Below, in pieces: positions 987-3,943 of a DNA stretch of 4,023 bases (position 1 is the first letter of the stretch; each line of letters opens with the position of its first letter). Origin of the DNA: a virus (Duplodnaviria; Heunggongvirae; Uroviricota; Caudoviricetes); IMG/VR virus record IMGVR_UViG_2579778622_000009; one strand, given 5' to 3'. The notes below the pieces were generated by a model, which ran no database searches, had not been told where the DNA came from, and saw nothing but the letters and a program-made list of their open reading frames with translations. Both the position numbers and the translations under genes were made by a program.

Positions 987-1370
987 ATGCGTGATATTCA
1001 GATGGTTCTTGAGCGTTGGGGAGCGTGGGCGGCTAATAATCATGAAGATGTGACCTGGTCGTCCATTGCCGCCGGTTTTAAGGGATTAATTCCTTCAAAA
1101 GTAAAATCTCGCCCACAATGTTGTGACGATGACGCGATGATCATTTGCGGGTGCATGGCCCGTCTGAAAAAGAACAACAGCGATTTGCATGATTTATTAG
1201 TAGATTATTATGTAGTCGGTATGACATTCATGTCACTGGCAGGTAAGCATTGCTGCTCTGATGGTTATATCGGGAAAAGGTTACAGAAGGCTGAGGGCAT
1301 AATTGAAGGGATGTTAATGGCATTAGATATCCGGTTAGAGATGGATATCGTTGTTAATAACTCTAATTAA
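987..1370 (+). CDS. quuD: Q-like late-gene transcription antiterminator (QuuD-like), 127 aa
   Basis: ATG at 987 is preceded by GGAG at 976-979; the ORF-track GTG at 972 is probably an over-extension. The product [24 protein letters not shown]... carries Cys clusters ([15 protein letters not shown]) consistent with a zinc-binding Q family. It sits in the canonical spot upstream of the late promoter region and lysis genes. Stop TAA at 1368-1370. Confidence 0.85.
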
Positions 1371-1390
1371 TATGCCAATTGTTTACTAAA

Positions 1391-1421
1391 AATTATTAAA
1401 AATGGGGCGTTGAGACGCCCC
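1391..1421 (-). terminator. Rho-independent terminator on - strand, likely ending the nmpC transcript
   Basis: Perfect 6-bp GC stem GGGGCG (1404-1409) / CGCCCC (1416-1421) with loop TTGAGA. Read on the - strand it is followed by ATTTTTAATAATTTTT (complement of 1391-1403). On the + strand it is followed by CAAAAATAAA, so it is orientation-specific for the - strand. Confidence 0.5.
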
Positions 1422-1440
1422 CAAAAATAAAGGGTAATAT
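1410..1440 (+). promoter_or_regulatory. Candidate Q-dependent late promoter (pR'-like): -35-like TTGAGA at 1410-1415, -10-like TAATAT at 1435-1440
   Basis: Found by eye about 40-70 bp downstream of the Q stop, where lambdoid pR' normally lies. The 19-bp spacer is suboptimal. A -10-like TTTATATAG at about 1451-1460 in the presumed initial transcribed region could act as a sigma-dependent pause element. Boxes are inferred, not verified. Confidence 0.25.
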
Positions 1441-1509
1441 ATAACAGAAGGTTTATATAGTTAGAAGCAAGGTTGTGCTTCTAAAGGAAGTGGCTTGAGG
1501 GAGCCACTT

Positions 1510-1550
1510 ATATGTTGGGGAGGCAAAGCCTCCCGCAACATATCTTTTTC
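1510..1550 (+). terminator. Rho-independent terminator on + strand (tR'-like), ending the short late leader transcript
   Basis: Stem 1510-1524 (ATATGTTGGGGAGGC), loop AAA, stem 1528-1543 (GCCTCCCGCAACATAT) with one bulged G, followed directly by CTTTTTC at 1544-1550. The U-tract is present only in the + orientation. Confidence 0.5.
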
Positions 1551-1559
1551 GTAATCAGA

Positions 1560-2642
1560 TTAGAACTGATACACCAGACCTACAGCGACGATGTCGTCGG
1601 TATCAATACCAGCTGTTTTGGTAAACTTACTATCGTCAATTAAGTTGATTTTGTAATCAACAAAAGTGGACATGTTTTTATTAAAGTAGTAAGTAGCACC
1701 GACATCGACATACTTGACTAAGTCTCGGTCACCATGAACACCAAGGTCTTTACCTTTTGACTGAAGGTAAGCAACAGATGGTCGCAGACCGAAGTCAAAC
1801 TGATATTGTGCTACTGCTTCAAAGTTTTGTGCTTTGTTTGCAATATGGTTATTACCAAAAACGGTCATATTCTGAGTTTCAGAATATGTGGTAGCCAGAT
1901 AGATATTGTTCGCATCATATTTCAGGCCTGCAGCCCATACTTCCGCATTTTTGCCGGAGGCATTGAATTTGCTCTTACCATAGGCGACCTGACCGTCAGT
2001 GCGATCTGATTTAGCATAGGTTGCACCCACGCCGAATCCTTCATACTCATAAGTAGTGGAGAAACCGAAACCATCACCATTGGCTTCAGTTACGTCAGTG
2101 CGGTCATTTTTACCCTGATACTGAGCAGCAAAGTTCAGGCCATCGACCAGACCAAAGAAGTCGTTGTTACGATAGGTTGCAACACCAGTGGTGCGACCAG
2201 TCATGAACACATCTGTTTGGGTCCAGGTATCGCCACCGAATTCTGGCAGAACGTCAGTCCACGCACCGATGTCGTATGCTACACCGTAGTTACGGCCGTA
2301 ATCGATTGAGCCGTAGTCACCGAATTTCAGGCCTGCAAATGCAAGACGGGTTTTGTCTTTGGAGGAACCTTGAGATTCAGCGCGGTTGCCTTTGAATTCA
2401 TATTCCCACTGACCGAAACCAGTCAGTTGATCGTTGATTTGGGTTTCACCTTTGAAGCCAAGACGGGCATAAGTAGTATCACCATCATCTGCATCGTTAG
2501 AGGAAAAGTAGTGCTTGGCATTAACTTTCCCGTACAGATCCAGCTTGTTACTGTCTTTATTATAAATTTCAGCTGCCTGAGCAGACATCGCCATCAGTAC
2601 TGATGCAGCTACAGCAGAAATTGCCACTGTTAATTTTTTCAT
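1560..2642 (-). CDS. nmpC: Outer-membrane general porin, OmpC/OmpF/PhoE family (NmpC/Lc-like), 360 aa precursor, apparently intact
   Basis: N-terminal signal peptide [23 protein letters not shown] followed by the mature start [17 protein letters not shown], typical of enterobacterial porins. Aromatic/Gly-rich beta-barrel composition. C-terminal ...VGLVYQF with terminal Phe, the beta-barrel assembly signature. Start codon complement CAT at 2640-2642, stop complement TTA at 1560-1562. Confidence 0.92.
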
Positions 2643-2760
2643 CGTGAGCCCTTTTTTTTGAACTATTATTAAAAAATGATGTCACTGCGCGATAAATATT
2701 CATCTAATCAATGTGATTATTTCAAGATGTAAGTTTTAGTTTCTCATTTAATTTGTGAAG
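2643..2760 (-). promoter_or_regulatory. nmpC translation-initiation region and probable promoter/5'UTR (exact boxes uncertain)
   Basis: On the - strand an A-tract plus AAGGG lies just upstream of the ATG (complement of 2643-2660). A candidate -35 TTGAAA is at the complement of 2720-2725. The region is extremely AT-rich. Transcription start not determinable from sequence alone. Confidence 0.25.
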
Positions 2761-3230
2761 TAGATCTCTATTTTTATCTGAACTTTTTCTATCGAAACCT
2801 ATTTATGGCTCTTATTTGAACAAAAATAAACCTATTAGCTAATTTATATTAATGGCTGTTATTTATGGGGGTTCTATAATTCGGTGGTTTAATTTAAATC
2901 AACTAAAAATAACGCCGGAAATTATTTATTGGTTATTTGTTGAGGTTTTCTTATATATTTGTGGTGGTGTTTTGAACACTCGGTAGCATTCTCATAAATA
3001 TCATTCAGTGGTTTACGTACGTAAAAAATTGGTTATGCTGTTAAGAGTGGTTACTTCGTCACACAGCTTAAACCCGCCGTCGAGCTGGTTTTTCCATTTT
3101 TTGAGTCTCGATATTAGCTGATAACTCAATACCTGAGTTATTCACTGACTCCGAGTCTGTTACGTTTCTGCTTTTTTGCGATACGTTGTATTCCCTCAAT
3201 TTACACCCGCTTTGTCTGCGAGGTGGGGTT

Positions 3231-3446
3231 ATGAAATCCATGGATAAGTTAACAACGGGTGTCGCCTATGGCACCTCAGCAGGTAGTGCCGGTTACTGGT
3301 TTTTACAGCTGCTCGATAAAGTCACGCCCTCACAGTGGGCAGCAATAGGTGTGCTGGGTAGCCTGGTATTTGGCCTGCTGACGTACCTGACAAACCTTTA
3401 TTTCAAGATTAAAGAAGATAAGCGCAAGGCTGCGAGAGGTGAATAA
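3231..3446 (+). CDS. essD: Class II pinholin (phage 21 S-like) with dual-start motif, 71 aa
   Basis: RBS GAGGTGGGG at 3220-3228 and ATG at 3231. The product [71 protein letters not shown] has two transmembrane segments and a basic C-terminus. Met1-Lys-Ser-Met4 gives two in-frame starts (3231 and 3240), as in holin/antiholin pairs. The ORF-track start at 3186 is probably an over-extension. Confidence 0.9.
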
Positions 3447-3943
3447 TGCCTCCATCATTACGAAAAGCCGTTGCTGCTGCTATTGGTGGCGGAGCAATTG
3501 CTATAGCATCAGTGTTAATCACTGGCCCAAGTGGTAACGATGGTCTGGAAGGTGTCAGCTACATACCATACAAAGATATTGTTGGTGTATGGACTGTATG
3601 TCACGGGCATACAGGAAAAGACATCATGCTCGGTAAAACGTATACCAAAGCAGAATGCAAAGCCCTCCTGAATAAAGACCTTGCCACGGTCGCCAGACAA
3701 ATTAACCCGTACATAAAAGTTGATATACCGGAAACAACGCGCGGCGCTCTTTACTCGTTCGTTTACAACGTGGGCGCTGGCAATTTCAGAACATCGACGC
3801 TTCTTCGCAAAATAAACCAGGGCGATATCAAAGGCGCATGTGATCAGCTACGTCGCTGGACATATGCTGGCGGTAAGCAATGGAAAGGTCTCATGACTCG
3901 TCGTGAGATTGAGCGTGAAATCTGTTTGTGGGGTCAGCAATGA
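3446..3943 (+). CDS. rrrD: SAR endolysin (T4-lysozyme-type muramidase with N-terminal signal-arrest-release domain), 165 aa
   Basis: ATG at 3446 overlaps the pinholin stop (TAATG). The N-terminus [20 protein letters not shown] is a Gly/Ala-rich weakly hydrophobic segment typical of SAR domains. Glu35, Asp44 and Thr50 ([18 protein letters not shown]) sit at the catalytic-triad positions of T4-lysozyme-like enzymes. Stop TGA at 3941-3943. Confidence 0.9.

Follow-up and report, generated by a model that had tools for sequence, protein, structure and literature searches.

Late-gene control in related phages

The late control region of phage lambda (PR′-qut-6S RNA-tR′) comprises a constitutive promoter with the Q site inside it, a short terminated RNA of 194 nt and then the genes S-R-Rz. 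At the phage 21 PR′ (PDB IDs: 6P18 and 6JNX), the Q21 element is a TGAGCA direct repeat centred near −21 and −13, with two protomers ~8 bp apart and a sigma-dependent pause just downstream. In lambda as in phage 21, Q binds between −35 and −10.

The Shiga toxin (Stx) phages 933W, H-19B and Sakai Sp5 carry Q933-type antiterminators, and it is through PR′ that Q933 controls how much Shiga toxin 2 is made. Their primary PR′ start has been mapped, with dRNA-seq and Term-seq of the Sakai Stx phages placing it 257–258 nt upstream of the tR′ 3′ end. The polymerase passes a first hairpin and reaches the terminator at +258, and the 258-nt PR′ transcript gives rise, in its 3′ part (+173 to +258), to the 74-nt small RNA StxS. 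In 933W, the annotated pR′ (TTTACG-N16-TATCAT) overlaps the end of Q, the first hairpin is annotated as a rho-independent terminator, and tRNAs and stx lie downstream.

The third relevant group is formed by phage PA-2 and the Escherichia coli K-12 prophage DLP12 (qsr′), in which a porin gene (lc or nmpC) that is phage-carried and dispensable for phage growth lies next to the lysis genes. The PA-2 record (GenBank J02580) annotates only two CRP sites between porin and lysis genes. The K-12 homologue of this spacer is one of 78 ‘promoter islands’, a concept that denotes unproductive DNA (Panyukov and Ozoline 2013; PMC3661553), and is listed in Table 1 of that work as island 576129_354, nmpC(−)/essD(+), H-NS-bound in all ChIP studies. 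A σS-holoenzyme SELEX peak, obtained in vitro, also falls inside the nmpC/essD spacer. Work on homologues of the present locus has thus shown where PR′ starts (Stx phages), that the late operon depends on Q, and that H-NS binds (K-12).

Identity and composition of the tract

We analysed a 4,023-nt stretch of phage DNA (the window; IMG/VR record IMGVR_UViG_2579778622_000009), in which a tract at 2643–3230 separates a porin gene (Porin_1, 1560–2642, minus strand) from a holin gene. An earlier note on this DNA had described the tract as AT-rich and devoid of a convincing open reading frame, and this description holds. The GC content is 33.5% compared with 44.3% for the whole window, staying at 26–30% over 2700–3010 (minimum of 26% around 2700–2900), while the segment at 3011–3093 is less AT-rich (36–40% GC). 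No open reading frame in the tract exceeds 57 amino acids. The 44-residue frame at 2852–2986 was considered as a gene and rejected, since its start is lost or stops are gained in PA-2, K-12 and two other homologues and it has no Pfam match. The Rfam 15 covariance models gave no match anywhere in the window at E values up to 1.

The motifs reported previously are all present, namely the perfect 14-bp palindrome TTTACGTACGTAAA at 3012–3025, the inverted repeat GACTC-C-GAGTC (GACTCCGAGTC) at 3147–3157, copies of GAGTCT starting at 3103 and 3153, and the ATTTATGG/ATGGCT repeats at 2801–2810 and 2852–2868. Small inverted repeats and repeated 6- and 8-mers are not enriched (the fractions of Markov-1 versions reaching the observed values are 0.12, 0.17 and 0.08), a repeat search within the tract returned low-identity AT-rich pairs only, and the GACTC-C-GAGTC repeat is disrupted in seven of 45 related loci. 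Among Markov-1 versions, 6.4% of those made from the tract and 24% of those made from the whole window have a perfect palindrome of 14 bp or more, and the window itself has a second one, CATCAGTACTGATG (2592–2605), within the nmpC coding sequence. As a bare sequence the palindrome is therefore unremarkable, and its significance rests on its conservation and position.

The tract itself is ordinary and well known. In lambdoid prophages of the PA-2/DLP12 type it separates nmpC/lc from S, and this qsr′/DLP12/PA-2 region is present in 3168 of 5426 complete E. coli genomes, more than half of them. Identity is 94.7% to the PA-2 lc-to-Rz record (J02580) and 90.7% to the K-12 DLP12 nmpC–essD spacer, with the same flanking genes and an identical palindrome in both. 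Unlike the window, DLP12 has IS5 in nmpC, a holin leader shortened by a 19-nt deletion, and a canonical GCGGG stem in its first hairpin.

The AT-rich gap is made up of two known control regions that stand back to back and face in opposite directions, a porin upstream region and a prophage late (lysis) promoter. Homology with Q0-type loci bearing other inserts begins only at ~3010–3011; the palindrome belongs to the right-hand module because homology with porin-less loci begins exactly there. Positions 2643 to ~3010 form the porin-insert upstream region, and 3011–3230 the phage late-gene switch. The explanation that we consider quite probable overall combines this porin upstream module with a PR′ late switch whose palindrome most likely docks a Q antiterminator of the QuuD/Q933 type.

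A late promoter at the palindrome

The right-hand module contains a predicted PR′ (3012–3039, plus strand), with a −35 hexamer TTTACG at 3012–3017, a 16-nt spacer including an A6 run, a −10 hexamer TATGCT at 3034–3039, and a predicted start at ~3046. It is collinear with the annotated pR′ of 933W, and the PR′–tR′ layout of the Stx phages (TTTACG-N16-TAT..T, with a Q of the same clade) is likewise collinear with that of the window. Whereas the Stx phage start has been mapped by dRNA-seq, the PR′ of the window is placed entirely by homology. Applying the 257–258-nt distance to 933W puts the start 7 nt past the −10 TATCAT; the distance to tR′ was used since the published Sakai start (1,266,203) falls inside Q on NC_002695.2, another version of the record. 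A consensus scan of 1300–3500 (threshold of 9 of 12 positions) reported no σ70 promoter and no hairpin in the tract. The PR′ hexamers match at eight of the 12 positions, which accounts for the absence of a call here.

The window segment 3011–3093 is 76–90% identical to the DNA right after Q in Stx phages, where pR′ and a terminator are annotated. The same module is present in the porin-less phages 933W, SfII and phiP27, directly after Q in the case of 933W, and the −10 pattern (T/C)AnnnT is retained across all dyad classes described below. Phage 434B, which is viable, carries all of the DLP12 DNA from Q through the beginning of essD, so the late promoter for this Q must lie somewhere in that DNA. 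A position immediately after Q (1371–1560) was also considered and rejected, as this stretch is absent from nmpC-less Q0 loci, whereas the 3011–3093 block is shared.

Just beyond the −10 hexamer is an initial transcribed block, TAAGAGTGGTTACTTCGTCAC (3042–3062, plus strand), which is identical in the window, 933W, SfII, phiP27 and WGPS2 in a free alignment, and which served as the pattern to scan for related loci. The TAAGAGTGGTTAC block is also identical between 933W and the window. Within 3042–3062, a −10-like AAGAGT (3043–3048) straddles the predicted start (−3 to +3), with its A at position 2 and T at position 6 invariant. It is a candidate sigma-dependent pause element; the corresponding element at the beginning of the lambda transcript is AACGAT. 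Positions 3053–3060 are the counterpart of the ‘putative qut’ of 933W. The logic of the region would be that of lambda. RNA synthesis from a σ70 promoter, here PR′, would start near 3046 and proceed in the direction of the genes for holin, endolysin and Rz.

The cognate factor for this promoter would be the Q antiterminator encoded at 987–1370 (plus strand), a QuuD/Q933-clade member of Pfam family PF06530 (E = 8.5e-54), to which Q21 also belongs. It is ~78% identical to the 933W Q and a distant relative of the structurally solved Q21 (E = 7.6e-8). The lambda Q family (PF03589) is unrelated to it. In contrast with 933W, where promoter and Q end overlap, the window Q lies 1.67 kb upstream of PR′ because the 1.6-kb porin insert sits between them.

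The palindrome changes with the Q allele

The palindrome at 3012–3025 covers −34 to −21 of PR′, with its centre at ~−27.5 and its left arm forming the −35 hexamer, and the promoter that carries it reads away from nmpC and towards the holin. Comparison with related prophages, which the earlier note had proposed as a check, shows that it is perfect in all 38 PA-2/DLP12-type Q0 loci. In 933W the dyad is TTTACGATCGTAAA, likewise a perfect palindrome, which equals that of the window except for the two central bases (TA to AT) and overlaps the 3′ end of the Q coding sequence.

Other Q clades have different palindromes with the same centre. Across 104 loci from IMG/VR and reference records, Q clusters correspond one-to-one with dyad classes (ARI of 0.999 for the 82 non-identical loci), whereas the dyad and the gene directly 5′ of Q have been shuffled against each other (ARI of 0.33). 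This pairing persists over Q-to-promoter distances of 5 to 2885 nt and with six, nine and eight insert types in the three large clades. Within each clade the dyad, the A-tract and the TAnnnT −10 are constant, whereas the flanking bases vary. When the 60 nt upstream are searched for their longest palindrome, it has the common centre in six of eight Q clades (P per shuffled sequence of 0.011), and an independent scan, with each species represented by one genome, yielded new Q subtypes, in Kosakonia and Ewingella, with new palindromes (TGTAATTACA and TCGGCCCGA) at that centre. Changes in the dyad are mirrored on both arms (A..T to G..C, TTTACGTACGTAAA vs AACGCGTACGCAAA). Other dyads are GCGTACGC, GCGGTCCGC and ACGCGTACGC, and two variants have an imperfect dyad (TTTACAATCGTAAA and GCGCACGC). 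The Q proteins of the different clades differ mainly in a helix–turn–helix-like segment (residues ~62–100).

What the analysis establishes is the homology, together with where the dyad lies, how well it is conserved and how it co-varies with Q. The one-for-one change of dyad and Q allele suggests that the dyad is a Q-binding element. A Q of the QuuD/Q933 type would dock on it and load onto polymerase paused just past the start, and the Q-modified polymerase would then read through into the lysis genes. To the more general proposal, in which the Q-binding element of the QuuD/Q933 clade (PF06530) is a compact dyad of 8–14 bp at −27.5 whose sequence has changed along with the recognition helix of Q to give at least eight orthogonal Q/promoter pairs, we assign about an even chance. 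Such an element would differ from the Q21 direct repeat in being an inverted repeat and in its position; reading of 3012–3040 revealed no TGAGCA.

The alternative that survives best, although we regard it as unlikely, is that the palindrome is nothing more than the −35 region of PR′, with its symmetry and its match to Q as by-products of co-inheritance, and that Q docks elsewhere, for instance on the invariant transcribed block. Insert types are never common to different Q clades, so the association of Q and dyad may be partly linkage, with Q, insert and dyad possibly inherited as one block, and the overlap of the 933W dyad with the end of Q would fit such descent. The 933W record moreover puts its putative qut at ACATTGCC, downstream of the start, and Q21 uses direct repeats. 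Against this, the symmetry recurs at one fixed centre in at least eight unrelated or partly related classes, two of them found prospectively, the arm changes are mirrored, and the pairing of Q and dyad was never reshuffled though the gene 5′ of Q was. The −35 bases match TTGACA poorly in most classes, and −35 function alone therefore does not explain the conservation of the dyad. The block past the start cannot encode Q specificity, as all Q clades share it unchanged.

If the dyad does bind Q, it would define the so far ‘putative’ qut of Shiga toxin phages (TTTACGATCGTAAA in 933W), and docking there would explain how genes such as nmpC could be inserted between Q and the promoter without breaking late control. 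The comparative data predict a docking place for Q933-type antiterminators, which is of interest given the role of Q933 in Shiga toxin 2 production, and cognate pairs of Q and dyad could be used as orthogonal parts for antitermination.

The porin upstream region

The earlier note had raised the nmpC promoter with distal regulator sites as one possible content of the tract. The first part stands for the left two-thirds, which is porin upstream DNA, whereas the palindrome is not its regulator site. The nmpC/lc 5′ leader and promoter region (2643–2790, minus strand) is the most conserved porin-proximal part among five homologues with 82–95% identity. It contains a putative CRP-binding site of the porin promoter, ATTTGTGAAGTAGATCTCTAT (TGTGA-N6-TCTCT; 2751–2771, minus strand), which corresponds to the site annotated in J02580 (1434–1454) and whose TCACA half-site is unchanged in all five aligned homologues, in agreement with the CRP-type site anticipated in that note. 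No −10/−35 pair for the porin promoter exceeded the threshold of the consensus scan.

The region at 2700–3010 is AT-rich noncoding DNA of the porin insert, and the suggestion of an H-NS region agrees with the K-12 promoter island (PMC3661553), whose published coordinates we could place on the window approximately; for H-NS occupancy itself, the published data concern the K-12 homologue alone. This raises the reading, which we consider improbable for the whole tract, that all of it is xenogeneic DNA silenced by H-NS, an unproductive island in which the palindrome is incidental. The 26–33% GC content, the H-NS occupancy of the K-12 homologue in all ChIP data sets (PMC3661553) and the binding of the σS holoenzyme in vitro agree with it, and chance alone would give a 14-bp palindrome in 6% of such tracts. 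For 2700–3010, H-NS silencing is compatible with the porin-plus-PR′ explanation, but it fails to explain 3011–3093, which is conserved among phages with unrelated left flanks and corresponds to the mapped primary start in Stx phages. Phages with this layout are viable and must express their late genes and, in contrast to the island concept, the right end of the tract has a real phage promoter.

The possibility that the palindrome is the operator of a dimeric porin regulator (CRP, OmpR or a phage repressor) acting distally on the nmpC promoter, as the earlier note had proposed, is very remote. It is a perfect dyad in a porin upstream region, and one of the CRP sites in the PA-2 record lies 21 nt to its right. 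However, it is 370 bp from the nmpC start codon, does not resemble TGTGA-N6-TCACA, and recurs with the same spacing as the −35 and spacer of PR′ in 933W, SfII, phiP27 and other phages that have no porin, homology with which begins exactly at the palindrome. The second CRP site of the 1986 PA-2 record (3046–3066) lies inside the late-promoter block and, because this block is invariant in the late promoters of porin-less phages, is probably not a CRP site. The palindrome is thus to be read as part of a late promoter rather than as a porin regulator. The options listed in the earlier note included neither a late promoter nor a Q antitermination site.

A further promoter candidate lies close to the porin gene. 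A σE-like GAACTA-N16-TCACT (2660–2686, plus strand), with hexamers read off the sequence and a start near 2692, is probably what the DLP12 literature calls the ‘essD promoter’, an assignment that we make with low confidence. The position of the latter was reconstructed from the primers of PMC7918800, which span 2570–3356 of the window (771 bp in K-12); as that paper names the amplicon −121 to +650, after Rueggeberg 2015, the literature +1 falls at ~2691–2692. The DLP12 literature therefore appears to put the essD promoter ~350 nt to the left of PR′, which counts against the PR′ account.

That the palindrome is instead a hairpin, terminator or processing site for transcripts arriving from the left, for example from the σE-like promoter near 2692, is the least credible reading, for although RNA 3005–3032 folds at −5.6 kcal/mol (z-score of −2.5) and the A-run after the dyad is a T-run on the minus strand, the stem has just five AT-rich pairs around a 4-nt loop, the 8–10-bp palindromes of other clades have no loop and are too short to fold, the plus strand has an A-run rather than a U-run after the dyad, and the terminator scan was silent on both strands.

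Promoter-proximal hairpin, lysis leader and holin

Downstream of PR′, a promoter-proximal hairpin and U-run (3064–3093, plus strand) form a candidate tR′, homologous to the hairpin and U-run of 933W. Compared with 933W, the window allele carries a weakening G-to-T change at 3086 that disrupts the usual CCCGC/GCGGG stem, leaving an alternative stem (CAGCUU, 3064–3069, with GAGCUG, 3082–3087) followed by five Us. The calculated energies are −6.5 kcal/mol for the window, −8.5 kcal/mol for K-12 and −10.1 kcal/mol for 933W, and the consensus terminator scan of the window did not report the candidate. Homology with ETEC1717 and the Stx phages stops at its end, 3093 (~+48).

A hairpin and U-run in the first ~48 nt of RNA should stop or stall polymerase that lacks the Q modification, if this particular allele acts as a terminator. 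The predicted RNA of ~48 nt is shorter than that of lambda and dissimilar in sequence; with respect to the unannotated small RNA that had been suggested for the tract, a short promoter-proximal RNA is plausible. Since the homologous hairpin is read through in Stx phages, the allele here is weaker, and the scan of 1300–3500 found no second terminator before the holin, late-gene repression in the lysogen is left unexplained. A homologue of StxS in the tract was considered and rejected, as the similarity to Stx phages ends at ~+48, short of the part that gives rise to StxS. Whereas 933W has its second terminator and StxS, with tRNAs and stx following, the holin of the window follows after 185 nt.

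The untranslated leader of the lysis operon (3094–3230, plus strand), which holds the GACTC-C-GAGTC and GAGTCT repeats, is ~74% conserved with SfII up to the ribosome-binding site. In the minimum-free-energy fold, a stem-loop at 3204–3225 (plus strand; CACCCGC...GCGAGGTG) pairs with the holin Shine–Dalgarno sequence GAGGTG. In the SfII version (CACCTGC...GCGAGGTG) the pairing is kept and the bulge is shifted, as judged by eye. By analogy with S21, the stem-loop may influence the choice between the two holin start codons.

The first late gene under PR′ encodes an S21-type class II holin (3231–3446, plus strand; PF04971, E = 2e-35) with the dual start MKSM, and is followed by a lysozyme gene (PF00959) and the beginning of Rz. 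The 434B record annotates antiholin and holin starts at the same codons as those of the window holin.

Gene content and identity of the tract

The window is a lambdoid prophage late-control region carrying a ybcO-like gene (115–405), rusA (402–764), ylcG (761–901), a Q antiterminator gene (987–1370; Pfam PF06530), a minus-strand porin gene (1560–2642; Porin_1, E 1.9e-151), the genes for an S21-type holin (3231–3446) and a SAR-type lysozyme (3446–3943) and, after the latter at the window end, only the start of Rz. The tract is the 588-nt gap between the porin and holin start codons. It is an already known region (qsr'/DLP12/PA-2), found in 3168 of 5426 complete E. coli genomes, with an identity of 90.7% to the nmpC–essD spacer of the K-12 prophage DLP12, 94.7% to the lc–S region of phage PA-2 (J02580), and 97–99.5% to several sequenced temperate phages.

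The motifs and coordinates listed for the tract in the earlier note proved exact on checking the sequence. The tract is also AT-rich, as it had said (GC 33.5% versus 44.3% for the window, with a minimum of 26% near 2700–2900), and lacks a convincing ORF, none being longer than 57 aa; a 44-aa ORF at 2852–2986 is not intact in PA-2, K-12 or two more homologues. The perfect 14-bp palindrome at 3012–3025 is not significant by itself, because perfect palindromes of this length or longer turn up in 6.4% of the Markov-1 sequences modelled on the tract, and a second 14-bp one, CATCAGTACTGATG, lies at 2592–2605 within the porin signal-peptide coding region. For Markov-1 sequences modelled on the whole window, the fraction with such a palindrome is 24%. 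The tract's small inverted repeat, like its repeated 6- and 8-mers, is no commoner than chance predicts, and GACTC-C-GAGTC is disrupted in 7 of 45 relatives.

A late promoter in the right third

In a distant search, window 3011–3093 alone matched ∼300 Stx-phage records, in which the match lies directly 3' of the Q gene. The 933W record annotates this DNA as pR' (TTTACGATCGTAAAAATCTGCATATCAT), a putative qut (ACATTGCC) and a rho-independent terminator (CCCGCCGATGCGCGGGTTTTTTT). By alignment, the window equivalents are a −35 TTTACG (3012–3017) and, after a 16-nt spacer, a −10 TATGCT (3034–3039), followed by a hairpin with a U-run (3064–3093). Free alignment of the window, PA-2, K-12, 933W-like, SfII, phiP27 and WGPS2 sequences gave an invariant block, TAAGAGTGGTTAC.T.G.CAC...AACCCGCC...GG.TTT, with a variable segment containing the palindrome 5' of it. 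The promoter module is that of Q933-type Stx phages. Of the parts of a Q-dependent cassette, the window has Q, the late genes and, by homology, the promoter, together with a candidate Q-binding element, a candidate pause element and a candidate terminator. The palindrome, earlier considered as a possible porin-side regulator site, is instead part of the late promoter, which faces the other way.

In the Sakai Stx phages, the primary PR' start was mapped by dRNA-seq (Sy et al., PMC7547250) and lies 257–258 nt upstream of the tR' 3' end determined by Term-seq (PMC7547250). Measured back over this distance from the T-run of the second 933W terminator (1453–1458 in our 933W locus, L128), the 933W start falls at 1199–1202, 7 nt past TATCAT, and by homology the window start would be at ∼3046. 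With the start placed there, the predicted holin leader is about 185 nt and the predicted RNA to the U-run about 48 nt. On NC_002695.2 (L132), the start published for Sakai Sp5 (1,266,203) lies within the Q gene and ∼141 nt to the left of the promoter; those coordinates belong to a record version other than the current RefSeq. The viable recombinant phage 434B carries the whole DLP12 segment from ylcG to the essD start, and its viability shows that this segment holds a working Q/late-promoter pair, despite IS5 in nmpC.

The dyad varies with Q

Scanning IMG/VR for the invariant block returned 120 loci, all with a common layout: an upstream A-run, the dyad, an A-/T-run, a (T/C)AnnnT −10, the invariant block and a hairpin. 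The dyad centre is fixed 22.5 nt before TAAGAG (∼−27.5) while its sequence varies between phages (TTTACGTACGTAAA, TTTACGATCGTAAA, ACGCGTACGC, GCGGTCCGC, TGTTATAACA, TTCGTTACGAA and TGGAATTCCA). The longest palindrome of the 60 nt upstream sits at this centre in six of eight Q clades (probability per shuffled sequence, 0.011). In the 104 loci where a PF06530-type Q lies upstream, Q clusters and dyad classes correspond one-to-one, with an agreement score (ARI) of 0.999 over 82 non-identical loci; as a control, ARI is 0.33 for the gene directly 5' of Q, which has been reshuffled against the dyad, a single gene family being found with five dyad classes. The Q–promoter distance ranges from 5 to 2885 nt, with six, nine and eight insert types in the three large clades. 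Within a clade the dyad, A-tract and key −10 positions are constant and the flanks vary; downstream leaders, and one 13-nt −10 segment, are common to different Q clades.

An independent scan of one genome per species gave 28 loci (Yersinia, Serratia, Trabulsiella, Kosakonia, Ewingella and others), in which known Q clades again had the expected dyads and two divergent Q proteins had new palindromes, TGTAATTACA and TCGGCCCGA, at the same centre. Conservation among the Q proteins covers the first ∼60 residues, and clade differences lie mainly in an HTH-like segment (∼62–100). In lambda and phage 21, the Q-binding elements are also between −35 and −10. Taken as a whole, these observations make the dyad the best candidate for a clade-specific Q-binding element. 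It stays a candidate because Q21 binds direct repeats, because the inserts are clade-specific, so that linkage contributes to the association, and because two variants are imperfect palindromes. A Q21-type direct-repeat element is absent from the window's late promoter. The co-variation, possibly the one new point here, points to where Q933-type antiterminators would dock.

Module boundaries

Same-Q-clade loci with other or no Q–promoter inserts share homology with the window only from ∼3010–3011 rightwards, and strain ETEC1717 matches the window through quuD, the porin gene and the tract only as far as 3093, beyond which its late genes are Stx-phage-like. From these homology edges we divide the tract into 2643–3010, which travels with the porin gene, the promoter module (3011–3093) and the holin leader (3094–3230); the GC step fits this split (26–30% left versus 36–45% right). 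The Q-to-PR' slot is a habitual insertion site, holding 0.6–2.9 kb of varied DNA in most of loci L008–L160 (IMG/VR and GTDB), including porin genes, minus-strand gene pairs and, in phiP27, a GIY-YIG nuclease, and the dyad always marks the left edge of the conserved promoter. The window Q (3' end, 1355–1370) stops 7 residues (IVVNNSN) past the conserved LEMD motif, and Q933 runs ∼24 residues further, with its stop codon inside the palindrome, so the 3' end of an ancestral Q gene seems to have been replaced by the porin insert. In K-12 DLP12, 19 nt of holin leader that both the window and PA-2 carry are missing (3169–3187, CTGCTTTTTTGCGATA region).

The porin side

The most conserved part of the tract is the 150 nt adjoining the porin start codon, which contains the first of two CRP sites annotated in the PA-2 record (window 2751–2771), its TCACA half constant in five of five homologues. 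In K-12, the counterpart of the AT-rich DNA is one of 78 listed 'promoter islands' (576129_354, nmpC/essD) and is H-NS-bound in all ChIP data sets. The earlier porin-side reading of promoter, CRP and H-NS is supported for this part. The same K-12 spacer is bound by SigmaS holoenzyme in genomic SELEX. No nmpC transcription start could be placed from the sequence of the porin upstream region. The second PA-2 site (J02580, 1986; window 3046–3066) sits on the TAAGAGTGGTTAC..CAC block and matches the consensus in its TCACA half only; it is probably a misassignment, because the block is invariant in late promoters of porin-less phages.

In PMC7918800 the amplicon is labelled −121 to +650, following Rueggeberg 2015, and the primers cover window 2570–3356; reconstructed from that label and span, the start of the 'essD promoter' of the DLP12 literature would lie near 2692 on the plus strand. 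A sigmaE-like GAACTA-N16-TCACT at 2660–2686 fits this position.

The hairpin after PR' and lysogen silence

Stx-phage transcripts run past the first hairpin and end at +258 (PMC7547250); a consensus scan of the window found no second terminator before the holin. The window allele disrupts the canonical stem, and its alternative stem has −6.5 kcal/mol versus −8.5 in K-12 and −10.1 in 933W. The G to T change at 3086 (in GAGCTGG), found in PA-2 and at least 15 IMG/VR loci as well as in the window, destroys the usual CCCGC/GCGGG stem and makes the alternative CAGCUU/GAGCUG; the late operon of this lineage may be leakier as a result. The lysis genes may be kept off in the lysogen by a weak promoter (matching the consensus at 8 of 12 positions), by H-NS spreading from the adjoining island, by partial termination or by a stem at 3204–3225 that occludes the holin ribosome-binding site.

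Other elements

A StxS homologue was rejected; Stx-phage homology stops at ∼+48. An Rfam search of the window, including the Q-to-porin gap (1371–1560), matched no family. This gap has three hairpins: GGGGCGTTGAGACGCCCC (1404–1421), terminator-like on the minus strand, one at 1463–1482, and ATATGTTGGGGAGGC...GCCTCCCGCAACATAT (1511–1544), followed by CTTTTTC on the plus strand. The gap is presumably where the IpeX sRNA of DLP12 maps.

The enterobacterial late-promoter block is also present on contigs labelled Chitinophagaceae, Chryseobacterium, Bacillota, Actinobacteria and Erysipelotrichaceae (L133, L138, L146, L153 and L155), probably through contamination or mis-binning; the L146 promoter equals that of the window across the 60 nt compared, and L153 is without promoter-like context.
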